64,000 bases of DNA, from NCBI GenBank assembly GCA_964583975.1, contig CAZOXU010000002.1:155709-219708 (forward strand), given 5' to 3'. The position numbers and the translations under genes were made by a program. How positions within the stretch are numbered: the first letter of the stretch is position 1; each line of letters opens with the position of its first letter. The stretch comes from an uncultured Planctomycetales bacterium (lineage in GTDB: Bacteria > Omnitrophota > Gorgyraeia > Zapsychrales > Fredricksoniimonadaceae). Positions 726 to 18,994 of this stretch are shown here, piece after piece. The notes below the pieces were generated by a model. That model made no database searches. It had not been told where the DNA came from and was given only the letters and a program-made list of their open reading frames with translations.

Positions 726-995
726 TTAAGACCGTTTTTTCTTTTTAACAGCAGAAACCTTCTTTGGAGCAGTTGTCTTCTGTGAAGATATTTTAAAATG
801 ATACTTAATCCAAGCTGTGGAATGTTTTCTAAGCCAATCCTCAGCCGCAGCTTCAAAACCAATATCATAACCCGCAATTTCACTCTCCAACCATTTGTGG
901 CGATTAATTTCGGCAATGACCTTACGGTTACGTAATAATTTTCTAGCATCCATATTCATAAAAGATATCTTACTTTGCCCGATGAGTTTTCGCAA
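726..995 (-). CDS. conserved hypothetical protein (89 aa)
   Basis: Clean ORF with protein-like composition (KVIAEINRHKWLESEIAGYDIGFEAAAEDWLRKHSTAW). It abuts the TPM gene. Preferred over the overlapping low-complexity ORF 659..949. Family not recognised. Confidence 0.4.
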   Translation of the reverse strand: MRKLIGQSKISFMNMDARKLLRNRKVIAEINRHKWLESEIAGYDIGFEAAAEDWLRKHSTAWIKYHFKISSQKTTAPKKVSAVKKKKRS

Positions 996-1524
996 GAGTT
1001 TCCATGGACTTTAGACGGGAACGTATCTGGTAGGCCATCACACCAAAAGCAACAGCTACATTCAAAGAGTTTTTAATACCTGCCATATCTATTTCCACGG
1101 CAGCATCGCAATATTTAAGCAGATCTTCCGAAACACCTGAAATTTCATTACCAATAACCAAACATATAGGCGCTTGAGGAATAAACTGATCATAGGAACT
1201 TGCTCCTTGGGCCTGCTCAAGTAATACAATCTGATACCCTCTGGATTTTAGTTCCTTCAAAAGGCTTAGGCCATCTTCCCGATATTCCCAAGGAACATGA
1301 TCCTCTGCTCCCAAAGATGTTTTAGCAATTCCTCCCTGCGGTGGGTAGCCTGTGATACCACACAACCAGATCTTTTCTACCCCCGCTCCATCTGCCGTTC
1401 GAAAGATAGAACCTACATTGTGTAAACTGCGAATATTGTTGAGGACTACACAAAACGGTAAGCGCGGATTTGTTAATTGAGAAGACTGGCGAGCGACGAT
1501 CTCGTCATGGGTTAATTTACGCAT
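970..1524 (-). CDS. SpoU/TrmH-family RNA 2'-O-methyltransferase
   Basis: C-terminal SpoU motifs (GNEISGVSEDLL, LNVAVAFGVMAYQIRSRL). Start placed at internal MRKLTHDEI (1524), because a diverged copy of exactly this N-terminus (MRKLTHEEI) is duplicated at 2116-2160. Confidence 0.75.
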   Translation of the reverse strand: MRKLTHDEIVARQSSQLTNPRLPFCVVLNNIRSLHNVGSIFRTADGAGVEKIWLCGITGYPPQGGIAKTSLGAEDHVPWEYREDGLSLLKELKSRGYQIVLLEQAQGASSYDQFIPQAPICLVIGNEISGVSEDLLKYCDAAVEIDMAGIKNSLNVAVAFGVMAYQIRSRLKSMETLAKTHRAK

Positions 1525-1534
1525 AAAAATCAAT

Positions 1535-1975
1535 TTAACCAGGACACAACCCCACAAAAACTCCTTGAGGGTTACATTGGATTATACTGCCATTATGAGA
1601 ATCATATAGAATAATAATTGAATCCGAACTAGTTAGACCATTGGCATCATTACCCGTAGCTCCAACTGCGACAACATTAATTGAAAGAAAATTAACTGCG
1701 AGACTAACATAATTAACACTTTGGCTTGAACCAGGTATCGCACAAAGGTTATTAATTTCAGGCCAAAATACATCTGGATGTGCTAAGACACATAATAACG
1801 ATTTGTCTTTCATGTCCTTTAAAGTCATCAAAACCTCTGCCGCCTTGCTTTTATTAACCATTAAAAAATAATTAGGTACAGCAATAGCCATTAAAACTCC
1901 AAGAATCACCAGAGTGACAATAATTTCAATTAACGTAAAACCTTTTTTTCTGGAAGTTGTTTTCATAAGAAACAT
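1535..1975 (-). CDS. type IV pilin-like protein (prepilin N-terminal methylation domain)
   Basis: N-terminus ..KKG|FTLIEIIVTLVILGVLMAIAVP has a class III signal and Glu+5. The true start may be MKTTSRKKG at 1966. The C-terminus has a Cys pair (QCNPQGVFVGLCPG). It is a paralog of the pilin at 2169..2630. Confidence 0.75.
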   Translation of the reverse strand: MFLMKTTSRKKGFTLIEIIVTLVILGVLMAIAVPNYFLMVNKSKAAEVLMTLKDMKDKSLLCVLAHPDVFWPEINNLCAIPGSSQSVNYVSLAVNFLSINVVAVGATGNDANGLTSSDSIIILYDSHNGSIIQCNPQGVFVGLCPG

Positions 1976-1984
1976 TACTCAACA

Positions 1985-2160
1985 AAAACCCTTAAATACA
2001 TCGTTCGAGTCACAGAAAACTTGAGCACCATTGTAATCAAAGTCCATCCGTATCCCATCATTCGCGGCAAGCCCATTAGTACCTTTACCAGTAGCTAAAA
2101 TTGTATAACATCAAGATGACTGGCAAGCAACTATTTCTTCGTGAGTTAATTTGCGCATTA
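1985..2160 (-). pseudogene. duplication remnants: diverged 5' fragment of the SpoU gene (MRKLTHEEIVACQSS*) followed in-frame by a promoterless pilin C-terminal fragment (ATGKGTNGLAANDGIRMDFDYNGAQVFCDSNDVFKGFC*)
   Basis: Manual translation of the minus strand of 1985-2160. The pilin-like fragment ends one codon before the ATG of pilin 1. About 75% nucleotide identity to 1480-1524 (by eye). Confidence 0.55.
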
Positions 2161-2168
2161 TAATTAAT

Positions 2169-2630
2169 TTAATTCGGACATAGCCCTACAAAAACTCCTT
2201 GGGATAAACATTGATTAACACTACCATCAAAATTATAAAGTATAATAATATTATCCCCACTGGTTAGTCCATTAGAACCATTTCCTGTCGCATCAATTTT
2301 CACAATATTAATCAGCCACCCAAAATCAACAGCCATAGTCGCATAAGTAGCTGAAGCACTCGTACCTACATATCCACATTTAGCCGTCAAGTCCATCCAA
2401 GTACCTTCATGAGCATGAGCTTGAACACAAGGCAATGTTTGATCTTTTATATTTTTTATAGTCAACATTACTTCTGCCGCCTTACTTTTATTAATCATTG
2501 AGAAATAAGCAGGCACAGCAATGGCAGCTAACACACCAAGAATGATCAAGACAACGATCAATTCAATTAAAGTAAAAGCTTTTCGTTGTTTAAAGATTCT
2601 CATCCTGTTCCTTAATTCATCAATTTCCAC
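2169..2630 (-). CDS. type IV pilin-like protein, paralog 2
   Basis: ..RKA|FTLIELIVVLIILGVLAAIAVP prepilin motif (Ala at -1). C-terminus GLTSGDNIIILYNFDGSVNQCLSQGVFVGLCPN is nearly identical in pattern to pilin 1. A possible internal start MRIFKQRKA (2603) would remove the overlap with pepF. Confidence 0.75.
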   Translation of the reverse strand: MEIDELRNRMRIFKQRKAFTLIELIVVLIILGVLAAIAVPAYFSMINKSKAAEVMLTIKNIKDQTLPCVQAHAHEGTWMDLTAKCGYVGTSASATYATMAVDFGWLINIVKIDATGNGSNGLTSGDNIIILYNFDGSVNQCLSQGVFVGLCPN

Positions 2631-4330
2631 TCTTTATACACAGCTTTAATCAAAGGCTCAATGATTTCCTGTGAAAAATCAAATTTAATCCCTGCCTGCT
2701 GGTAAAGCTCTGGTAACGGACGTGATCCACCTAAACTAAGCCCATTTAAATAACCAGACAGAGCCTCTTTAGGATCTTTTTTAGCTTTGAGCCATAATTG
2801 TAGCGCACCTAATTGGGCAATGCCATACTCAATATAATAAAAAGGTACTTCAAAAATATGTAATTGACGATGCCATAAATAGGCGATTTCCTGATCCAGA
2901 TTCTGCCAATTTAGGAACTTGCCACCGTATTTTAAATACAATTCCACCCATTTTTGCTTCCGTTCCTGGGCTGTATGGTTAGGGTGTTCATACATCCAAT
3001 GTTGAAAAGAATCGATATTAGCCACCCAAGCCAAAATATGTACAATGCCTTCTAAATGTTCGCGATTAGAACGCCTTGCATCTTCAGGAGAATAAAATTG
3101 ATCCAAATGTTCACCTGCCAAAAGCTCCATCGCCATCGAGGCAACCTCACAAAATTCCATCGGTGCATGACGATAATCAACCAGCGGATCATTGACAGAA
3201 GCTAACGCATGAAACGCATGCCCAGATTCATGCAACAGGGTCCTGACATCATCATCTACACCTACTGCATTCATAAATATAAATGGTTTACGGGCTTCAT
3301 TAAGAGTATTTTGATACCCCCCCGGAGCCTTGCCCTTTCGGCTTTCTAAGTCCAGTAAGCCAAGATTTTGCATTTCTTGAAATTGAGAACCTAAATTCTT
3401 ATCCAATTTATTGAAAATGGCCTGTGTTTTTTCAATTAGCTGTGGTGCGCGCTCAAAAGGCTTTAAGGAGCTTCGACCTAGAGGATCCACCGCAACATCC
3501 CAAGGACGTAAGCTATCTAATTTCATTTCCTGCTGACGTCGTTGAAGAATTTCTCCATATAAAGGCACTACCAAACGTTCAACAGTTTCATGATACTTCT
3601 TACAATCAGCCGGGGTATAGTCAAAACGATGATAATTACGAAACTGATATTCGATAAAATTATTTAACTTTGCATTAGCTGCAATCTGACAACGTAAAGA
3701 AAAAAGCTGATCAAATATACTGTCTAGCTTATCCTTATCAGCCAGACGCCTTTGGGCTGTGGCACGCCAGGCTTCTTCGCGTTTTTTACGATCTGTTTCT
3801 AATAAGTACTTGCCCATCTGAGGCAAGGTCTGCTCTTTGCCTTCAAAGTTGACCATCATAGCTCCACAAACCGTCTGATATTCCTGGGAAAGCATATCAA
3901 CCTTGGTTTGTAAAGGCACATTAGCCTCCACAAACAGGTCTATGTCCACCTGGGTTGTGCGATTATAAACTTCATAACGCTTCTTATCTAAAGGAAAGGT
4001 TTGCAATAATTTTAAATATTTGTGATTTAATTCATCATTTATTGGCTTAATCGTGGGCGGGATATTCTGGATAAACTGGGTATAGGCTGATGCTTTTTGA
4101 GGATCATCCGTATGGCAAGTCATGGTGATATAAAGGATTGATCCTACCTGATTAAGGGCCGCATCGAGCTCGGAACGGTCCAAAAGCCAAGATTCTAATT
4201 CTTTAGCTGAATTGATGGGCCTATCTAACAGCTTCACATACAGTTCTTTAACAAGCTTAGCATTAGTTAAGTCGATTTGCTGAGGAACGAACATCCTCTT
4301 TGCGTAAGGTGTAATTTGAGTTAAATCCAT
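2612..4330 (-). CDS. pepF: oligoendopeptidase F (M3 family metallopeptidase)
   Basis: 572 aa with the HESGHAFH zinc motif and M3B architecture. Confidence 0.85.
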   Translation of the reverse strand: MDLTQITPYAKRMFVPQQIDLTNAKLVKELYVKLLDRPINSAKELESWLLDRSELDAALNQVGSILYITMTCHTDDPQKASAYTQFIQNIPPTIKPINDELNHKYLKLLQTFPLDKKRYEVYNRTTQVDIDLFVEANVPLQTKVDMLSQEYQTVCGAMMVNFEGKEQTLPQMGKYLLETDRKKREEAWRATAQRRLADKDKLDSIFDQLFSLRCQIAANAKLNNFIEYQFRNYHRFDYTPADCKKYHETVERLVVPLYGEILQRRQQEMKLDSLRPWDVAVDPLGRSSLKPFERAPQLIEKTQAIFNKLDKNLGSQFQEMQNLGLLDLESRKGKAPGGYQNTLNEARKPFIFMNAVGVDDDVRTLLHESGHAFHALASVNDPLVDYRHAPMEFCEVASMAMELLAGEHLDQFYSPEDARRSNREHLEGIVHILAWVANIDSFQHWMYEHPNHTAQERKQKWVELYLKYGGKFLNWQNLDQEIAYLWHRQLHIFEVPFYYIEYGIAQLGALQLWLKAKKDPKEALSGYLNGLSLGGSRPLPELYQQAGIKFDFSQEIIEPLIKAVYKEWKLMN

Positions 4331-10341: not shown

Positions 10342-10667
10342 CTAGGCTCCTGTTCCTTCATAACCCGATCAACAGCTTGTTGGGCTTTAATAATCCTGGC
10401 CACCTTTTGTCGTTGCCATAATAAATAAGCCCTAGCATTTTCTGGAGTGGGAGCCTCAAGTAAGGTCAGCATGGCGGAAGGCGGCATATAGTAGGCAACC
10501 TTACCATCGGCTCCTATGGTAGGATCTCTAAAATCAAATTCTTGCTTGGTTTCTGCCTTGGAAGCACCAATCTTACGATCAAAATAATCCAATGAACCCA
10601 TCTTATAGGGGTTGGCAGCATAGCTATTACTGGACATGATCCAAATTAAAATGAAGCAAATCCACAT
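10338..10667 (-). CDS. small exported protein (109 aa), possibly the N-terminal part of a TraF/TrbB-like protein
   Basis: Signal peptide MWICFILIWIMSSNSYA. Overlaps both flanking genes (4 nt and 41 nt). Combined with the next ORF the length is ~260 aa, which is TraF-like. Confidence 0.45.
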   Translation of the reverse strand: MWICFILIWIMSSNSYAANPYKMGSLDYFDRKIGASKAETKQEFDFRDPTIGADGKVAYYMPPSAMLTLLEAPTPENARAYLLWQRQKVARIIKAQQAVDRVMKEQEPR

Positions 10668-11163
10668 AACCCTTTATCCTTTGAGTTTTTCCATGATCCA
10701 TAATGATATAGGTTGGCGTTTGGCCAATTTCATATTTATTGGCCAATGCATTCTTGAAATCTAATGTGTACTCCAGATCTTTAGGAAAACCTCTTCCTTG
10801 GGAGCGGAAATATTCTATAAACTCTTTAACTGTAGACATGACATATACCTGGATAGCCCAATCAGCATGCTTTCTTTTAAGACTTCCTAGATCATGGATG
10901 GCTTTCTTACACCAAGAACATTGCGGATCAATAAACAACAAGATTTTTTTCGTATCAGATTTATTCTGTACGGCACTTACGATAGATTTTTTAGAATTAT
11001 TAGTACAATGTTCGCAGGTCGTCTTTAGAAAAATATCTCTAGAGTTAAAGATGGTTTCTTGGGCCCAGGACAACTCATTTGAGTTCCAATAAACCAAAAT
11101 CCCAAAAATTACCCTAAATACAACAGCTGCGTTGATGCCAGTAAATCCAAACATAATGACCAT
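10627..11163 (-). CDS. thioredoxin-fold thiol:disulfide oxidoreductase (TraF/TrbB/DsbA-like), CxxC active site
   Basis: LLFIDPQCSWCKK is the classic thioredoxin motif. A second CEHC pair lies upstream. N-terminal hydrophobic segment. Confidence 0.6.
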   Translation of the reverse strand: MVIMFGFTGINAAVVFRVIFGILVYWNSNELSWAQETIFNSRDIFLKTTCEHCTNNSKKSIVSAVQNKSDTKKILLFIDPQCSWCKKAIHDLGSLKRKHADWAIQVYVMSTVKEFIEYFRSQGRGFPKDLEYTLDFKNALANKYEIGQTPTYIIMDHGKTQRIKGYVDLLHFNLDHVQ

Positions 11164-12019
11164 CCTTAGATTGCTTACCCTGTTCCAAAAGTGCTGGATT
11201 CTCTCCTATAGGAAAACAAGCAGTCTTTTGGGGAAAAACCATCTGTACCTTATCAATGCGAAGATTGGGCTTGAAATCTAACCTTGATTCAATAACATTA
11301 GCTGAGAAAGTTTCCCCTGCCAGACTTATAGAACGAAGAGCATCTACAATTGAGGCCACAGGCGCACTAGGAGTTATGACAAATCCCTGCCTCGGGTAAA
11401 GCGGCCCCCAATCTTTCATACATTGATCTTCGGCTCCTATAGGTAGATTATGACATTGCCCTCCTATCCGTGCTGCAACTAGACTCTGAGGATGCTTCTT
11501 CTCTATATCTGCTCTTCTCCAGGAAATACTATCTGCTTCGGAAAGATACCGAATCCCCAAGGTCCGATTAGGAATATCTGAGCAAACAGCATCTTCAAAG
11601 ATTTCACCTAATGGATAATCATAAAGGTGGACTTCATTAAATTGCAAATTGCTAGAACTTAAACTTTGAGAAGAACTGCCACTGGTAACCTTTAAATCTT
11701 TAAGACCATTTATCAATTCAAGTTCTTTCTGAGCCACCCGTTTAGTCAGCCCTTCCAAAGGAATCCCATATTCAGCAATGGTGTAATCTCCTGGCATTTT
11801 GACAGTTTCCATAAATAATTCTGGCTGCCAATAACGGATTTTGATCCCAATGGGAAATTCTAGACGTTCTGGTTTGGGACACACCCCTTCAAACCTAATC
11901 TGTAAACATTGAAAGTCTGCTTGGAGGGATAATTCCGTAATACTTTTCTTAAGTGAACTTGTTTCTTCTTGAGCAGCAGCGGGCAATACCAATATAAACA
12001 AAAGAACGAATATTCTCAT
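11114..12019 (-). CDS. exported TraU-like protein (F-type T4SS periplasmic protein family), tentative
   Basis: 301 aa with signal peptide MRIFVLLFILVLPAAAQ and ~9 Cys. From memory, YWQPELFMETVKMPGDY / HLYDYPLGEIF...IRYLSEADSISW / WIYWHQRSCCI align with F TraU GYWEPMALTDVTRSPGCM / HWYKYPLTYWL...IAYLSEIDPTWT / YLMWRKRNCVFL. Not confirmed by search. Confidence 0.5.
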   Translation of the reverse strand: MRIFVLLFILVLPAAAQEETSSLKKSITELSLQADFQCLQIRFEGVCPKPERLEFPIGIKIRYWQPELFMETVKMPGDYTIAEYGIPLEGLTKRVAQKELELINGLKDLKVTSGSSSQSLSSSNLQFNEVHLYDYPLGEIFEDAVCSDIPNRTLGIRYLSEADSISWRRADIEKKHPQSLVAARIGGQCHNLPIGAEDQCMKDWGPLYPRQGFVITPSAPVASIVDALRSISLAGETFSANVIESRLDFKPNLRIDKVQMVFPQKTACFPIGENPALLEQGKQSKDGHYVWIYWHQRSCCI

Positions 12020-12873
12020 AATTTTATAATAAAGGCCAACGCATAAAATGGTGGCACATGGAAATCATTAGATATGGGATGCGAGTGTGGCTGGTCATTG
12101 CCTAAGGTGTTTGTATTCATTGTTCCTGTTAAAGCAGCTTGAGGATCAATTTTGATATAGGTTGGACCACCTGGTTGAAAGGTTGAATCATTAGTATTAA
12201 CTGTAAAATGGTGACTCGGCATTTCAGCAATCGTCAGAATATGGGGACCTGTCTGTCCTCCATGATGATGTGTTACCGAGCCACCTACAGATAGCGGGTT
12301 TCCCATAATATTGCTTTGAGCAATGCCAGCAATATCCTGTCTCGCTCCCACAATAAATTTATCACGAAGATCAGGCGTACCATTACTTCCATCACACAAA
12401 GCCCATCCAGTGGGAATATTAGCAATGGCCCCAGACCAGGCCACAATAACCCCCGAGGCAAGACTTGCTGATCCTAAAGATGAAATTGTACTAGAGACAT
12501 TGCTTCCATTAACTACCGCGGCAGGTAAATGACTAGCTACCAAATTTGCCCATTGTGAAGGAACATCGCTACTTACCGTCATCTGCAGACTGCTACTCGA
12601 AATTAAATACGCATTATGCCAAGGATTAAGCGCGTTCCATTGGGAATTTAAATATCCTTGAGACTGCATAGTTGGAATATCTACAGGCCAAACATGGTGA
12701 TCCACATAATAATTTCTGCCTGCTTCTTGAAGCATGGCCATTTCCAAAGCTGTTTTCTCACCAGCACGAATTTGAACTGAACGAATAGCTACAGGTATTA
12801 TAGAAGATGCTAATACAGCCATAACGCCCATAACAATAGACAGCTCTATAAGAGAAAAAGCACGCTTGTTCAT
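12016..12873 (-). CDS. type IV pilin N-terminal domain fused to a phage tail-collar (MdpB-like) domain
   Basis: N-terminus MNKRA|FSLIELSIVMGVMAVLA (prepilin cleavage/methylation motif, Glu+5). C-terminal half VAWSGAIANIPTGWALCDGSNGTPDLRDKFIVGA ... HHHGG ... PPFYALAFIIKL matches the tail-collar domain signature (G.W..CDG ... PPY.ALAFIMK). Confidence 0.7.
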   Translation of the reverse strand: MNKRAFSLIELSIVMGVMAVLASSIIPVAIRSVQIRAGEKTALEMAMLQEAGRNYYVDHHVWPVDIPTMQSQGYLNSQWNALNPWHNAYLISSSSLQMTVSSDVPSQWANLVASHLPAAVVNGSNVSSTISSLGSASLASGVIVAWSGAIANIPTGWALCDGSNGTPDLRDKFIVGARQDIAGIAQSNIMGNPLSVGGSVTHHHGGQTGPHILTIAEMPSHHFTVNTNDSTFQPGGPTYIKIDPQAALTGTMNTNTLGNDQPHSHPISNDFHVPPFYALAFIIKL

Positions 12874-13012: not shown

Positions 13013-13873
13013 TCAAGCATGTGGATGAGCTTGATCGTAAACCTTCTTGAGCTTATCAGTGGTCAGGTGAGTATAAATCTGTGTTGTAGATAAATTAACA
13101 TGCCCCAAAAGCTCTTGAACTGAGCGCAAATCAGCACCATGATTCAATAAATGAGTAGCAAATGAATGACGAAACATGTGCGGAGTCACATGCTGAACCA
13201 TAGCCTCTTTAAGAACATATTTATTAATAATATTACATACACTTCGTGCTGTTAAACGCGTACCGCTTTTATTGAGAAAAAGTGTCTCTTTTTGATGTGA
13301 TCGCTTTTCTGTATATTCTTTAATGGCTTCAAGAGCTTTATCACCAATGGGAACTAATCTCTCTTTTCTTCCCTTTCCCATGACCCTAATAATATTGCCA
13401 ATAAAATCTACATCTTCAAGATCAAGTCCTACAAGTTCACTAACCCGGATGCCTGTAGAATAAAGCGTTTCAAAAATAGCCTTATCTCTTAGATTACTAA
13501 TTTTATCTGTTGAAGGAGATTCAATAATTTGTGTCGCCTCCTGTTCACTTAAAAAATGTGGCAGGGGTTTGTCTAGCTTGGGTGTTACCAAAAGACTGGC
13601 TGGATTGGTTGAAACAATCTTCTCACGTTGTAAATATCTAAAGAAACTCCTTAAAGAAGAAAGTTTGCGCGCCACCGAACGAGGCTTCAAATTCTTAGTC
13701 CTCATCTGGGCCAAAAATCTTCTTAATGTCGTATAATTTACTTTTTCTAAAGGTACTTCAGTTAAAAAAACTAGGAATTCTTCTAGATCTATTTTGTAAT
13801 TAAGCAAGGTATGCTGGGAATAATTCTTTTCAACTTCTAGATAGGAAAGGAATTTCTCTAGATATTTTTTCAT
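13013..13873 (-). CDS. tyrosine site-specific recombinase XerC/XerD family
   Basis: 286 aa. RHSFATHLLNHGADLRSVQELLGH...TQIYTH catalytic motifs. Confidence 0.85.
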   Translation of the reverse strand: MKKYLEKFLSYLEVEKNYSQHTLLNYKIDLEEFLVFLTEVPLEKVNYTTLRRFLAQMRTKNLKPRSVARKLSSLRSFFRYLQREKIVSTNPASLLVTPKLDKPLPHFLSEQEATQIIESPSTDKISNLRDKAIFETLYSTGIRVSELVGLDLEDVDFIGNIIRVMGKGRKERLVPIGDKALEAIKEYTEKRSHQKETLFLNKSGTRLTARSVCNIINKYVLKEAMVQHVTPHMFRHSFATHLLNHGADLRSVQELLGHVNLSTTQIYTHLTTDKLKKVYDQAHPHA

Positions 13874-15837
13874 TGATTAACAACAGGAAGTTTATTAGCT
13901 ATAAATTTACATTCTGGAAAACGGCTACAACCATAAAAGGTATTACCTCTCATCGCACGACGCTCAACCAATTTTCCCGTACAACCAGGTTGTTGGCAAG
14001 GAACATCTGTGGTAAATGGTTCAGCATGTTTGCAATCCGGAAATCCAGTACAGCTAATAAATCTTCCGCGACGTCCCCATTTAATAGCTAAGGGTTTGCC
14101 GCATAATGGACAATTACGATCAATGGTAGCATGGGTCTTTTGGATATTAGCATCTGCATGTTCTAATTCCTCCTTAAACGGCCCATAAAATTCTTTAAGA
14201 ACAATCTCATATTTTGTACTACCTTCTTCAATTAAATCCAGCTCTTCTTCCATATGGGAAGTAAAACTAATATCCATAATCTTTTTAAAATATTCCATCA
14301 AAAGAGTACAAATCTTAATCCCCAAATCAGTAGCATCAAAATACCCACGATCACGCAACACATAGTTACGAGCCACCAAGGTCCCGATAATAGAAGCATA
14401 GGTACTTGGACGGCCAATCCCATTTTCTTCTAACGCCTTAACTAAACTAGCTTCGGAATACCTGGCAGGTGGTTTAGTAAAATGCTGAGTTGCCTTAACT
14501 TCTTTTAAATCTAAATTATCCCCTTTAGTATATAAAGAAGGATCGAGCTTGCCTTCTTCTTGTTCGTCAGCATCTTTATACACAGACAAATACCCTGCAA
14601 AACTTAAGATTGACCCCGAAGCTCCAAAGGTAAATCGACCAGCCCCCACTTCAATCTTAGTCTGGTCAAAAATGGCTTGGGTCATCTGACAGGCAATGAA
14701 TCGCTTATGGATCAAATCATAAAGACGGAATTGATCTTCGGTTAAATACTTTTTAACATCCTCAGGCTTTCGATGGACATCGGTTGGGCGAATAGCTTCG
14801 TGAGCTTCCTGAGCATTCTTTTTGGATTTAAATTTATTAGGCTCTTCTGGTAGAAATTTAGCTCCATACTCTTTTTTAATATAAGACCGCACTTTTTCTA
14901 AAGCTTCATTGGCGATATTAACTGAATCCGTACGCATATAGGTAATAAGACCAACCGCCTCCTCATCACCTATTTCCACACCTTCATAAAGAGTTTGAGC
15001 AACCGACATTGTGCGGTTCGTGTTGAAGCCTAATTTACCAAAAGCTTCCTGCTGCAAAGTACTAGTAATAAATGGTGGCGGAGCATTACGTTTAACTTGC
15101 TTCTTATTAATAGCATCAACTTTAAATGACTGCGCTTTAATTTCTTTGACAGTATCTTGAGTCTGACTCTCTGTATTTAAATCAATTTTCTTGCCATCAA
15201 TTTTCTCTAGAGCGGCTGTAAGAATATCCTTAATCCCCTTTTTCTGAAGATCGACAGCGATCTGCCAATATTCTTGAGGGACAAAGTTCTTGATCTGCGC
15301 ATCACGCTCAACGATCAAACGTAATGCCACAGACTGCACTCTACCTGCACTCAAACGTGAACCAACCTTTTTCCATAAAACAGGAGAGATCTGATAACCT
15401 ACGATACGATCTAAAACACGACGAGCATTTTGGGCATCAACTTTCTTACGATCAAATTCTCTAGGATGTTCAAAAGCTTTTTTAACGGCTTCCTTAGTAA
15501 TTTCATTAAAAACAACACGTAAGACCTTTTTACCCTTCCCGATATGTTCAATCAAATTCCAGCCGATAGCCTCACCTTCACGGTCAGGATCAGTTGCTAT
15601 ATAAATCTCTTCAACCCCTTTGGCCTCTTCTTTGAGTTTCTTTAAAGTCTTCATCTTATCGCGGACGACAATAAATTGAGGATTAAAATCAGCTTCCAAA
15701 TCGACACCTAATTTAGACTTAGGCAAATCAATTAAATGCCCCATAGAAGCAGTGACTTTAAATTTCGTACCCAGAAATTTATTAATCGTCTTAACTTTGG
15801 CGGGAGACTCTACGATAACTAATGCTTTTGCAGCCAT
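13870..15837 (-). CDS. topA: DNA topoisomerase I with C-terminal Zn-ribbon repeats
   Basis: 655 aa. TOPRIM N-terminus (LVIVESPAKVKTI), type IA core. C-terminal CPLCGK / CTGFPDC / CSRFPEC zinc ribbons. Confidence 0.9.
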   Translation of the reverse strand: MAAKALVIVESPAKVKTINKFLGTKFKVTASMGHLIDLPKSKLGVDLEADFNPQFIVVRDKMKTLKKLKEEAKGVEEIYIATDPDREGEAIGWNLIEHIGKGKKVLRVVFNEITKEAVKKAFEHPREFDRKKVDAQNARRVLDRIVGYQISPVLWKKVGSRLSAGRVQSVALRLIVERDAQIKNFVPQEYWQIAVDLQKKGIKDILTAALEKIDGKKIDLNTESQTQDTVKEIKAQSFKVDAINKKQVKRNAPPPFITSTLQQEAFGKLGFNTNRTMSVAQTLYEGVEIGDEEAVGLITYMRTDSVNIANEALEKVRSYIKKEYGAKFLPEEPNKFKSKKNAQEAHEAIRPTDVHRKPEDVKKYLTEDQFRLYDLIHKRFIACQMTQAIFDQTKIEVGAGRFTFGASGSILSFAGYLSVYKDADEQEEGKLDPSLYTKGDNLDLKEVKATQHFTKPPARYSEASLVKALEENGIGRPSTYASIIGTLVARNYVLRDRGYFDATDLGIKICTLLMEYFKKIMDISFTSHMEEELDLIEEGSTKYEIVLKEFYGPFKEELEHADANIQKTHATIDRNCPLCGKPLAIKWGRRGRFISCTGFPDCKHAEPFTTDVPCQQPGCTGKLVERRAMRGNTFYGCSRFPECKFIANKLPVVNQ

Positions 15838-15843
15838 ATAAAA

Positions 15844-16935
15844 TTATATCCGTATGTAATATTGTCCTGGTAATTGCTTAATTACCCCTTTAAGTTCCAA
15901 GTTTAACATCTGCCCCATCAAACTACCAATATCTTGATCACTGCGAGCAGAAATCAAATCAATATGACTTGGAACACTTTCTATCAGCTCATAAATTTTA
16001 TATTCTTCCACAGATAAAGAAACATGTATTTTCTCTTTTTTTGCCTCAACTTCTAATTCTGACTGGATTATAACGCCAATTTCTTCCAGCACATCTTGTG
16101 CCGATAAGGCAATTTTAGCCCCTTCTTTGATAAGTAAATTGGTTCCTCCAGAAGAAACGCTGTCTATATTGCCTGGTACGACAAAAACATCTTTGTTTTG
16201 TCCTAGCGCATAATCTACCGTAATTAAAGCCCCACTTCTTAATGCTGCTTCGATCACTACGGTGGCCATACTCAGTCCACTGATAATACGATTTCTGCGT
16301 GGAAAATTATAAGTTAAAGGAGCTGTATCCATAGGAAACTCTGAAACAAGTAGCCCCTCTTGTCCGATAGACTCAAATAATTTAGTGTTTTCTTTTGGAT
16401 AGATATGATTTAAACCACATCCCAACACAGCTACCGTTTTCCCCTTACCCTGCAGTGCACCTTGATGACTTGCAGCATCCACACCCAGGGCCAACCCAGA
16501 GACTACTGCAATACCCGCCTTGGCAAATGTGCTAGCAAATTCATGTGACACTTTTAATCCATAGTAACTAGCTTTGCGCGAACCAACCAAAGCAATGGAT
16601 GGAGCAGTTAGAAGACTCGTATCTCCTTTTACGTAAAGAACAATAGGAGCTCCAGAAATTGTTCTTAAAGATTCAGGATATGCTTCATCTAAAATAGTTA
16701 TAAACTTAACCCCTACTTGTTGCATCCGCCTATATTCTTCTTCCAAGAATTTATGTTTTGGAAAATAAACAATATTCATTACTAAATTCTGATTTAGACC
16801 TAATTCCAATAAGGCAGGCTGTTGCTGTAATAATATTTGTTCGGCAGAACCAAAAGTAGAAATAAGTTTCTTTATGCCAGGCCCTGTTAAACCAGGGATG
16901 GCATTTAAAACTAACAACGCTTCTTGTTGTGTCAT
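15844..16935 (-). CDS. dprA: DNA processing protein DprA (Smf)
   Basis: 363 aa. Rossmann-like DprA core (ALVGSRKAS.YG...GLALGVDAASH..AL). Conserved dprA-topA adjacency. Confidence 0.85.
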   Translation of the reverse strand: MTQQEALLVLNAIPGLTGPGIKKLISTFGSAEQILLQQQPALLELGLNQNLVMNIVYFPKHKFLEEEYRRMQQVGVKFITILDEAYPESLRTISGAPIVLYVKGDTSLLTAPSIALVGSRKASYYGLKVSHEFASTFAKAGIAVVSGLALGVDAASHQGALQGKGKTVAVLGCGLNHIYPKENTKLFESIGQEGLLVSEFPMDTAPLTYNFPRRNRIISGLSMATVVIEAALRSGALITVDYALGQNKDVFVVPGNIDSVSSGGTNLLIKEGAKIALSAQDVLEEIGVIIQSELEVEAKKEKIHVSLSVEEYKIYELIESVPSHIDLISARSDQDIGSLMGQMLNLELKGVIKQLPGQYYIRI

Positions 16936-17450
16936 AGAAAAAGTTTCTTGAGTATTTGTGCAACCACGATATCCATTGAAGGATTAGAGGCATTGATCGT
17001 AAAATCAGCCTGGTTGTAGAGGGGAATTCTTTTCTTTAGAATCTCTTTGATCTTATCCTGGGGATTAGGACCGCTGATCAAAGGACGAGTTTTATCACCT
17101 TTAAGACGATTATAAATGATGCGAGGCGTGGTTTTCAAATAAAAAATAATTCCATTAATCTTCAGAAGCTTTATGTTCTTGGGATTAACGACTACTCCTC
17201 CGCCACAATCAATAATCACACCCTTCTTGGTAGCTAGCTTCTTAATTTGAGCATGCTCTAACTGTCGAAAGAAAGACCAACCTTTGGCTTCAACTATTTT
17301 AGCAATCGTCCGTTTTTGTCCAGCTTCAATGAGCTTGTCTGTTGAGTATGACTTAACCTTAAGCTCTTTAGAGAGAGCTTTAGCCACCATTGATTTGCCT
17401 GACCCCATAAAACCAATTAAAACAATATTCTTTATTAACTTTTTCTTCAT
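16932..17450 (-). CDS. aroK: shikimate kinase
   Basis: P-loop GFMGSGKS. Start placed at MKKKLIKNIVLIGFMGSGKS (17450). The N-terminal extension in the ORF track is unlikely. Confidence 0.8.
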   Translation of the reverse strand: MKKKLIKNIVLIGFMGSGKSMVAKALSKELKVKSYSTDKLIEAGQKRTIAKIVEAKGWSFFRQLEHAQIKKLATKKGVIIDCGGGVVVNPKNIKLLKINGIIFYLKTTPRIIYNRLKGDKTRPLISGPNPQDKIKEILKKRIPLYNQADFTINASNPSMDIVVAQILKKLFL

Positions 17451-17641
17451 AAGACTCGAGATCGGGTAGGAATAATAAACCACATAAGGAGATATAATAA
17501 TAAACCAAAGCCACAAAATATAATCCCCAAAGCAAAAGCTATACGAACAAAGGAGGAGTCTATTTTAAAATATTCTGCAACACCACCACATACACCTGCT
17601 ATTTTACGGTCGTTTTCTGATCGATAGAGTTTCTTGTTCAT
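17447..17641 (-). CDS. PspC-domain small membrane protein
   Basis: 64 aa. KIAGVCGGVAEYFKIDSSFVRIAFAL is the PspC signature, followed by a TM helix. Confidence 0.7.
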   Translation of the reverse strand: MNKKLYRSENDRKIAGVCGGVAEYFKIDSSFVRIAFALGIIFCGFGLLLYLLMWFIIPTRSRVL

Positions 17642-18005
17642 TGTTTATCCCCTTTTCTTGGGACGGATTAGGAACATCTAAGCTCGCTATTGCCAACCCA
17701 CCTTCACTTGAAAAAATTTGAATATCCAGATGATCGCCTGGATTTGCAGCATAAGGAATGTTTCCTATAAACTTGCTTGGAGAATACTGGCGCGGAAAAG
17801 TAAAATTCTGAGATTCTTTTTGATTATTTGCTATGATCGTAACCAAACGAACATAATACCGATCCATTCGATCTGTTGGATGATCAGCTTCGATATGAAG
17901 TATTTGCGTATCAGGATTATAATCGACTTGAACATTTGTGGCAGGCGATGCCCAGGAGTTTGTATGAATAAAGATTCCCCATATAAGGATTAGCAAAAAT
18001 CTCAT
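17604..18005 (-). CDS. exported hypothetical protein (133 aa)
   Basis: Signal peptide. Overlaps pilD by 4 nt, so co-transcribed. No recognised family. Confidence 0.45.
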   Translation of the reverse strand: MRFLLILIWGIFIHTNSWASPATNVQVDYNPDTQILHIEADHPTDRMDRYYVRLVTIIANNQKESQNFTFPRQYSPSKFIGNIPYAANPGDHLDIQIFSSEGGLAIASLDVPNPSQEKGINNEQETLSIRKRP

Positions 18006-18994
18006 AAACGGTATATACCACCTTCAAGAATCCACTGTATTATAGCATCTCCCCAAAATAAACTTACTAAGGCACCTAAAACTATAAAAGGTCCGTAGGC
18101 AATGGTACTTTCTTTAGTGCGTATTTTTTCAACAATTCCTACTACCCCTCCAAAGAAAGGCGCTATAAAAAACGATAATAAAGCTACTTTCCAGCCCAAA
18201 AAAGCACCTATCATCGCCATAAGCTTAACATCTCCTCCGCCCATACTTTCTTTACGGAAAATAATGTCCCCGATCAAGCCCATCGCATATATTGTACCAC
18301 CTCCAATAATAAACCCAGCCATGGCAGAAGCTAAACCATGAAGATGAATATTCAATAATTGAGGACCTTTGATCCAATGAGCATTAACGACATAGATAAT
18401 TAACAATGAAGTAAGAATTAATATTTTAAGAGGCTTATCATCATACCCCTGCTCTTCCGCCATTAAATGTTTACAGAAGAAAGGATAAATCCATTCTAAA
18501 AATAAACACAAAAGAACTATGAACCCTGCAATAAATCCACCTACCAACAAATTCTCTGAAGAAGAATGAAGACTAGGGATTAAAGTACTTAAAATAAGCC
18601 CTGCCCACATGCCTCCTATGGAAATTTCATCTGGAATAATACGATGTTCAATATCTACAAAGGTAGCAACGATAAAACAAGAAACCATCACCAAATAGGC
18701 TGGTAATATAGAAATGGCGCCATAATAATTATAAAAAACCATAAAAACAATTCCTGTTAAAAGCTCAACCATCCAGTAGCGAAAAGCAATCTTCCCCTTA
18801 CAATGACGGCAACGCCCCCCAAGAAGCAACCAACTAATTAAAGGAATATTATCGTACCAAGCAATCGGTTTTTGACATTTAGGACAATGAGAAGAAGGAA
18901 AAACAACTGACTTTTCTTTAGGAAGTCTTACTATACATACATTCAAAAAACTGCCAATGATAGAACCTAGAATAAAAAAGAATACTGATCCCAT
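18002..18994 (-). CDS. pilD: prepilin peptidase (A24 family, PilD-like)
   Basis: N-terminal CPKCQKP...CRHCKGKI Zn-binding tetracysteine. Polytopic membrane protein. 330 aa. Confidence 0.8.
   Translation of the reverse strand: MGSVFFFILGSIIGSFLNVCIVRLPKEKSVVFPSSHCPKCQKPIAWYDNIPLISWLLLGGRCRHCKGKIAFRYWMVELLTGIVFMVFYNYYGAISILPAYLVMVSCFIVATFVDIEHRIIPDEISIGGMWAGLILSTLIPSLHSSSENLLVGGFIAGFIVLLCLFLEWIYPFFCKHLMAEEQGYDDKPLKILILTSLLIIYVVNAHWIKGPQLLNIHLHGLASAMAGFIIGGGTIYAMGLIGDIIFRKESMGGGDVKLMAMIGAFLGWKVALLSFFIAPFFGGVVGIVEKIRTKESTIAYGPFIVLGALVSLFWGDAIIQWILEGGIYRL

Follow-up and report, generated by a model that had tools for sequence, protein, structure and literature searches.

Between the oligoendopeptidase gene pepF and the RNA methyltransferase gene spoU of an uncultured bacterium lie two intact genes for predicted type IV pilins, which are themselves separated by the beginning of a second spoU gene and the end of a third pilin gene. 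The locus is part of a stretch of 64,000 nucleotides (nt) of contig CAZOXU010000002.1 (positions 155,709 to 219,708), referred to here as the window. The question raised by this arrangement is whether the pilin fragment is a silent donor of pilin C-termini, as suggested in a first-pass annotation of the sequence, or the residue of a recombination event. On present evidence this is an ordinary recombination scar, located at a variable surface-protein locus. The scar element is very probably non-functional, and with slightly better than even confidence it is attributed to a one-sided recombination that produced a mosaic of two lineages.

Structure of the pilin locus

The order on the minus strand is pepF, pilin 2, a 10-nt spacer, the first part of spoU (spoU′) followed by a TGA, a pilin 3 fragment, pilin 1, a second 10-nt spacer and the intact spoU (Table 1). 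The distance from the pilin stop codon to the ATG of spoU or spoU′ is 10 nt for both copies. Pilin 2 begins 8 nt past the stop codon of pepF, and GTA is the single codon separating the stop codon of the pilin 3 fragment from the ATG of pilin 1 at position 1975.

A repeat search revealed three collinear direct-repeat families with offsets of 631, 634 and 637 nt. Using blastn, the unit of pilin, spacer and 45 nt of spoU matched its own copy at the 634-nt offset with 322 identities in 474 positions (68%, E = 4e-63), and the spacer and spoU′ part alone with 45 in 57 (E = 1e-10). In a six-frame tblastn search of the whole window, the 15 N-terminal residues of SpoU matched spoU′ (E = 2e-4), and the pilin 3 fragment matched pilin 2 (E = 4e-7) and pilin 1 (E = 2e-6). 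The fragment was also found by a hidden Markov model (HMM) of the pilin family, built from twelve pilins all of other genomes, among 1,725 six-frame segments (E = 2e-6; profile positions 97 to 137 of 137, the C-terminal 30%). No second pilin fragment and no second spoU′ copy were found in the 64-kb window by tblastn and family HMM; the sole further match was an unrelated N-terminal methylation motif in the open reading frame (ORF) at 12016-12873.

The first-pass annotation had described two paralogous intact pilins with a conserved C-terminal cysteine pair, a duplicated spoU 5′ piece between them, a third pilin C-terminal segment without start codon and duplicated flanks (1521 versus 2157). 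All of these are borne out. The similarity of 2116-2160 to 1480-1524 and of 1985-2100 to pilin 3′ ends was recovered by self-alignment and six-frame search, and the coordinates were right except for a few bases in spoU′, the fragment and the start of pilin 2 (Table 1).

The pilin 3 fragment has an open frame of 43 codons and keeps the conserved C-terminal residues of the family (D, the last Cys pair, F and G). This is consistent with a recent truncation. It corresponds to about residues 97-141 of pilin 1 (alignment A5), a stretch that in the structural model described below takes in the larger part of strand 2, then strands 3 and 4, and the Cys-Cys loop at the C-terminus. It has no start codon, no N-terminal helix and no peptidase site, and the program-made ORF list contains no ORF in its frame. 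The TGA behind spoU′ is in frame with the fragment. A read-through or recoding of this TGA was considered and rejected, as TGA ends 6 of 22 well-supported genes of this genome. It is thus a real stop codon, so that the fragment is untranslatable from the spoU′ start. Even if a product were made, it would lack the helix and the peptidase site required for pilus assembly. A gapped blastn alignment hinted at a frameshift of 1 nt where the fragment begins; this possibility was dropped, since the in-frame sequence CYTILATGKG already suits the strand pattern of the family.

Table 1. Features of the pepF-spoU region and the prepilin peptidase gene (window positions).
Feature	Position	Strand	Evidence and remarks
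pepF, M3-family oligoendopeptidase	2612..4330	-	Pfam PF01432, E = 8.6e-47; conserved upstream flank
Pilin 2, intact PilA-like type IV pilin (predicted), 144 amino acids (aa)	2169..2603	-	PF07963 N_methyl, E = 3.7e-8; family HMM, E = 1e-42; start at ATG 2603 favored
AT-rich spacer ATTAATTATA, 10 nt	2159..2168	-	copy of the spacer ahead of the real spoU; sequence reading, within the 45/57 alignment
spoU′ remnant, first 45 nt (15 codons), MRKLTHEEIVACQSS	2114-2158	-	TGA stop 2111-2113
Pilin 3 3′ remnant, 43 codons, CYTILATGKGTNGLAANDGIRMDFDYNGAQVFCDSNDVFKGFC	1982-2110	-	TGA stop 1979-1981; tblastn, family HMM, alignment
Pilin 1, intact PilA-like type IV pilin (predicted)	1535..1975	-	PF07963, E = 1.9e-9
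Spacer ATTGATTTTT, 10 nt, pilin 1 stop to spoU start	1525..1534	-	sequence reading
Intact spoU, starts MRKLTHDEIVARQSS, SpoU/TrmH-family RNA 2′-O-methyltransferase	970..1524	-	PF00588, E = 2.6e-33; conserved downstream flank
Prepilin peptidase, PilD-like, peptidase A24	18002..18994	-	PF06750, E = 2.9e-36; PF01478, E = 4.2e-18

The pilin 3 fragment as a potential donor cassette

In Neisseria, silent pilS copies form a gene-conversion reservoir for the C-terminus of pilE, and conserved tracts flanking the variable segments are common to these copies and pilE. The fragment resembles such a copy in that it is promoterless, 5′-truncated and located beside full-length pilin genes of the expressed type. 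It also spans the variable C-terminal part including the disulfide loop, with the frame open and the Cys-Cys loop retained. Unlike the Neisseria copies, it is the only one in 64 kb, where several silent copies would be expected, and shared conserved tracts are missing. Its protein identity to either intact pilin is about 38%, and the longest exact nucleotide match is 9 nt for pilin 1 and 10 nt for pilin 2, both at non-homologous positions (shuffled sequences: mean 8.1, 28% reach 9). For homologous gene conversion, the identical tracts must be several times as long, so that these chance-level matches provide no substrate for it. Furthermore, no G-quadruplex motif (G3+N1-7 x4) was found on either strand of the whole window. 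No such truncated fragment is present in the five related loci, and in one of these (L024) the pilin joined to spoU′ has kept its N-terminal part. In addition, the copy in the window is bounded by a piece of the neighboring housekeeping gene and therefore resembles a junction scar. On these grounds, the pilS-like donor cassette of the first-pass annotation is regarded as extremely improbable.

The longest identical run between pilins 1 and 2 is at most 14 nt, and between the two spoU starts about 8 nt at most. The shortness of these runs renders the locus recombinationally inert today. Two further systems were considered. An inversion switch of the Moraxella type is excluded because the fragment lies in direct orientation, and no convincing inverted repeat was found at the locus that would point to an integron-like attC site.

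Divergence of the stranded spoU start

The spoU′ copy differs from the resident spoU at nine positions and without any indels. Eight of the nine differences fall on codon position 3, which deviates from uniform decay (p = 0.001) and also from a mixed model in which half of the changes occurred on the functional copy (p = 0.02). The remaining change converts Arg12 to Cys, a residue that is invariant in 102 of 102 homologues. The third-position bias together with the change of Arg12 suggests that spoU′ diverged mainly while it was coding and became stranded recently. Compared to the functional spoU 5′ ends of the related loci L022 and L023, spoU′ shows 7-8 differences, against 9 to the spoU of its own genome. 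The bias and the equal distance to the spoU genes of other species favor a joining of the loci of two lineages.

The scar junction is at most 6 nt wide and in frame, with the TGA at the junction. Since spoU nt 45 and about codon 97 of the pilin are unrelated in sequence, the join would be an illegitimate one.

The pepF-spoU site in related genomes

The host is, judged by its sequence, a Candidatus Omnitrophota bacterium, and its pepF has orthologues in Candidatus Omnitrophota metagenome-assembled genomes with identities of 57-78%. For the comparison, 19 genome loci and 80 metagenome loci anchored on spoU were tabulated, supplemented by individual look-ups. A word-indexed search with pilin 1 gave the two window pilins and N-terminal-only matches, and the family was recovered by an exhaustive profile search. 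Homologues of SpoU number more than 7,000, the nearest being 86% identical. Exact-sequence look-ups of pilin 1 (both starts), SpoU and P0001 in the contig index gave no match.

The gap between pepF and spoU is only 2-58 nt in about 40 related loci, which shows that the adjacency of these two genes is ancestral. In the lineages of P0012 and P0016, spoU follows a PilZ-like gene instead of pepF. Pilins of the family under study occur at the pepF/spoU site in one small clade only (Table 2). Across species these pilins are 30-49% identical, compared to 77-91% for the last 70 residues of PepF and about 86% for the closest SpoU. The site between pepF and spoU is thus predicted to be a hypervariable major-pilin (PilA-like) site flanked by conserved housekeeping genes.

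Table 2. Pilin content of the pepF/spoU site in the clade that carries pilins there.
Locus	Pilins at the site	Remarks
Window	pilin 2, scar, pilin 1	two pilins and a fragment
L022	one (P0129)	closest relative, SpoU 86% identical; 12-kb contig argS-recJ-pepF-pilin-spoU-TPM, gene order as in the window
L101	one (P0130)	
L106/L107	at least one	stop overlaps spoU start; contigs begin inside the pilin, so that only the spoU adjacency is visible
L023	three, tightly packed (P0128, P0131, P0132)	without spoU′ remnant
L024	P0135, then a second pilin whose ORF opens with the spoU N-terminus	contig ends before any spoU

Inserts unrelated to the pilins are found between pepF and spoU in other Omnitrophota. 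L001:11757-13706 contains three unannotated ORFs (138, 126 and 380 aa) and L005:11685-12269 a 194-aa ORF taken as Nudix-like, these insert annotations being made without family search. The gap measures 2.2 kb in L025 and about 550-600 nt in L065, L089, L090 and L096. The pepF-spoU junction looks like a general insertion hot spot. In L101, the frame breaks past SpoU residue 132 and the remaining 340 nt (L101:1070-1413) encode unrelated sequence; this contig is possibly a chimeric metagenome contig.

A second stranded spoU start in L024

A remnant of the same kind was found in L024, a Logan contig of 1171 bp (SRR32573209). At L024:727-1170, 15 spoU codons (MRKITNEEIVSYQAY) are fused in frame to the pilin leader DRKAKKA/FTLIE, and the contig ends inside the gene. 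The stranded spoU start appears to supply this pilin with a start codon and an unusually long leader of 22 residues. The orthologue of the fusion pilin in L023 is the third pilin there, with an overall identity of 74% and an identity of 83% in the C-terminal columns aligned with the fragment. No further fusion of a spoU leader to a pilin was found among about 240 family proteins.

More changes at invariant SpoU positions are found in the L024 remnant (L4I, H6N and R12Y), which therefore looks older. The first base of codon 12 is a T in both remnants (TGC in the window, TAT in L024). L022 and L023, both without a remnant, are closer to the window than L024 is. With two cases only, the shared end point could reflect a single ancient remnant that was inherited and lost several times, a preferred joining point at about nt 45 of spoU, or coincidence.

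Origin of the scar

The origin favored here is a single additive, one-sided event of the homology-facilitated illegitimate recombination type. One parent would have carried pepF-pilin 2-spoU, the single-pilin layout of today's closest relatives L022 and L101. The other parent, of a related but diverged lineage, would have carried pilin 3-pilin 1-spoU, packed as closely as the array of L023. The parent loci would have paired homologously on one side, while on the other side spoU nt 45 was illegitimately joined to pilin 3 at about its codon 97. This fusion would have stranded the 5′ end of spoU and cut off the front part of pilin 3. DNA uptake followed by one-sided recombination is plausible in this organism because DprA and a prepilin peptidase are encoded nearby. 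The same type of model has been proposed for the orphan modules of type VI secretion system (T6SS), Rhs and contact-dependent growth inhibition (CDI) loci (PMC5361080). As expected for a displacement scar, a truncated old gene lies beside intact genes with a duplicated short conserved flank at the junction, and simpler layouts are found in relatives (about 40 loci with pepF next to spoU, a single pilin between the two genes in L022 and L101, and the array of L023). The joining of two loci accounts for the arrangement by one event, compared to at least two to three events for a duplication in place.

Such a duplication in place would start from an array pepF-pil3-pilX-spoU, in which a tandem copy reaching from the middle of pil3 to spoU nt 45 was formed, followed by divergence and the later loss of the full-length pil3 upstream of pilin 2. 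It would explain that the whole unit of pilin, 10-nt spacer and 45 nt repeats at the constant offset with a fairly even identity of 68-79%. The events that it requires include a clean deletion placing pilin 2 just behind the pepF stop codon. Moreover, a non-coding 45-nt copy as old as the pilin pair (56% identity) should show indels and changes at all codon positions, and spoU′ is no nearer to the resident spoU than to the spoU of other species. A duplication in place is accordingly considered unlikely, while retaining an appreciable share of the probability. The first-pass annotation had read the locus as a record of repeated unit duplication and recombination. The recombination is indeed recorded; as to the duplication, the third-position bias and the number of events favor a two-lineage join over an in-place process.

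Several observations weigh against the joining of two lineages. The closest known relative of pilin 1 is pilin 2 and vice versa, the two alone sharing the C-terminal ending QGVFVGLCP[G/N], and spoU′ and the resident spoU have an A..SS signature at variable codons in common, so that a duplication in place fits as well. Under the two-lineage model, this kinship would mean merely that the parents were closely related. The codon-position statistic is based on nine differences only, and after polarization with outgroups the coding constraint on the spoU′ branch reaches only about p = 0.02-0.05 by our own estimate. Neither an intact close allele of pilin 3 nor a donor-like genome was found among the family matches, the best match of the fragment being P0128 with 40% identity over the fragment-aligned columns of A5 and about 43% in a local BLASTP alignment. 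Homologous pairing of parents that are about 20% diverged would be inefficient. Finally, the spoU′ of L024 ends at the same spoU position (nt 44-45) with another partner, which a random illegitimate join does not predict.

This last point would be explained by a site-directed gain of cassettes, in which recombination or attachment preferentially takes place at the first approximately 45 nt of spoU and each addition strands a spoU start, giving arrays bounded by direct repeats. In the window and in L024 the right-hand partners at the break point differ (about codon 97 of a pilin and a pilin leader, respectively), both junctions are in frame, and both remnants have lost the invariant Arg12 with a codon 12 starting with T. 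The inserted segment in the window is flanked by direct repeats of 55 nt (10-nt spacer and 45 nt of spoU). These are two cases only, the common T of codon 12 could reflect one ancestral remnant, and L023 has its three pilins without any remnant. No recombinase gene lies between the TPM gene (1-723) and argS. The nearest one, a XerC-like gene at 13013-13873, belongs to a housekeeping dprA-topA-xerC cluster 10 kb away, and the repeat search gave weak inverted repeats only, none of them attC-like. Such a cassette mechanism is thus improbable as the origin of the scar. The related, more general proposition that the start of spoU is a recurrent, position-specific joining point for pilin gain, with arrays punctuated by stranded spoU starts, is doubtful too, but given a slightly larger chance.

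Since the source is a metagenome-assembled contig (222,597 bp) and its two halves resemble alleles of two related lineages, an assembly artefact was also considered, that is a chimeric path through the loci of two co-occurring strains (pepF-pilin 2-spoU and pilin 3-pilin 1-spoU). A graph assembler requires a shared k-mer at the switch, whereas here spoU nt 45 abuts the middle of a pilin, to which it is unrelated in sequence. With 70-79% identity and exact runs of at most 14 nt, the repeats would neither collapse nor cross-link, and L024, an independent assembly from another sample, has the same kind of junction. An artefact is thus very improbable, though not quite as far-fetched as the donor cassette.

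The pilins and their family

For pilin 2, the ATG at 2603 is favored over the GTG at 2630 of the program-made ORF list, since it gives the 9-residue leader typical of the family (MRIFKQRKA/FTLIE) and has AAGGA upstream. For pilin 1, an alternative ATG at 1966 leads to a 143-aa form (leader MKTTSRKKG/FTLIE), which is the product in the public protein collection.

Both intact genes encode predicted PilA-like type IV pilins (T4a-type major pilin) and probably function. In both products, a class III signal was found, with a short basic leader ending in Gly or Ala, Phe at +1, Glu at +5 and a hydrophobic N-terminal helix. The family comprises proteins of about 130-150 aa with four conserved cysteines, most of which end in NGN..C...G.F.G.C, and some sources label its members PilA. 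In 40 family members, F10, E14 and P31 are invariant. The same is true for C59, C75 and C141, while C131 is nearly invariant (at least 90% of the 40 members), with C131 and C141 in C-x9-C spacing. The cysteine pattern indicates a C-terminal loop (D-region) that would be closed by a disulfide bond.

The AlphaFold2 model of pilin 1, based on the 40-sequence alignment, has a predicted local distance difference test (pLDDT) score of 91.5. It shows the pilin fold, consisting of a long N-terminal alpha-1 helix of 50 residues (12-62) and a four-stranded antiparallel sheet (strands 84-93, 96-105, 116-122 and 128-134). The top Foldseek match in the PDB was the full-length PAK pilin of Pseudomonas aeruginosa (1oqw_A) with a probability of 1.00 and a TM score of 0.54, but with E = 0.014.

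The pilin segment (window 1500-2700) has a G+C content of 34-36%, compared to 39-47% in the flanking spoU and pepF. This is consistent with foreign or fast-evolving DNA, and is also expected of genes for small hydrophobic proteins. A scan for promoters and terminators gave fewer sites than expected by chance, and none at the pilin locus.

Genomic context

Downstream of spoU lies a small conserved minus-strand ORF of 89 aa (726-995) that has a weak match to DUF4032 and shares 26 nt with the 3′ end of spoU; the TPM-domain gene (1-723) comes next. The order spoU-small ORF-TPM is kept in relatives.

Pilins 1 and 2 are expected to be processed by the PilD-like A24 peptidase, whose gene lies 16 kb from the pilin locus. 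This gene belongs to a minus-strand cluster at 13013-18994 with a XerC/D-like tyrosine recombinase (13013-13873), topoisomerase I (13870-15837), DprA (15844-16935), a shikimate kinase and the peptidase itself (18002-18994). Taken together, DprA, the pilins and PilD suggest that the organism is able to take up DNA. Genes for PilB, PilC and PilM-Q were not found among the scanned ORFs of the window (scan up to 42982). The scanned part is ordinary core chromosome, with dnaE, rpsB-tsf-pyrH-frr, ilvC, leuA, metK and guaAB among its genes.

A minus-strand trio at 10627-12873 is odd for such a core-chromosome setting. It encodes a 285-aa protein with a prepilin N-terminal methylation motif and a weak phage-tail-collar match (12016-12873), a TraU-like protein (11114-12019; PF06834, E = 2.5e-28) and a thioredoxin-like protein (10627-11163), and may represent a separate pilus-related or conjugation-derived module.

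From position 1 to 59000, practically all real genes of the window are on the minus strand, and the plus strand has a strongly negative GC skew throughout, at about -0.16 in each 8-kb block. Both are consistent with one long co-oriented stretch of the leading strand.

Comparison with other variable loci

The scar is similar to the displaced orphan modules of Rhs, CDI and T6SS loci, for which C-terminal displacement via homology-facilitated illegitimate recombination was proposed (PMC5361080). In both cases a module would be added at a variable locus via a conserved flank, only a 3′ fragment of the old gene persists, a short conserved piece is duplicated at the junction, and simpler layouts resembling the state before the event are found in related strains. 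In contrast to these modules, the variable genes of the window encode pilins instead of toxins and immunity proteins. What is duplicated here comes from the 5′ end of the neighboring spoU and not from the conserved core of the variable gene itself, and an intact allele close to the displaced fragment was not found among the family matches.

A fixed-site variable major-pilin locus is also known from P. aeruginosa, in which the pilA alleles are located between pilB and tRNA-Thr. At both sites, diverged major-pilin alleles in varying gene number occupy one position between conserved genes, a pattern suggesting horizontal exchange. Unlike the pilA site, the site described here has the unrelated flanks pepF and spoU and no adjacent pilus machinery, it is empty in most relatives, and the scar is preserved.

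Integrative elements that duplicate their target end, bringing along a substitute for the part of the gene at which they insert, share with this locus the direct repeats of a gene end, here 55 nt, which flank the insert and leave the target gene intact. They differ from it in that the 634-bp insert has no integrase or mobility gene in or beside it, the repeats are 79% identical, and the cargo consists of a pilin and a broken pilin.

Implications for pilin diversity

For the annotation of similar loci, the scar cautions against automatically taking a truncated pilin gene for a silent cassette. Should the shared break point at nt 44-45 of spoU be a real hot spot, a targeted addition of surface-protein genes would be implied, and the joining point in spoU would represent a modular gain of pilins, unlike pilS-type gene conversion or inversion switches. 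The pepF-spoU site appears to be a fixed chromosomal position for the major pilin at which, in an uncultured phylum about which little is known, pilins are gained, lost and exchanged; the window preserves a datable junction of one such event. This helps to interpret the diversity of pilins in the Omnitrophota, in which pili are thought to be relevant for host attachment.

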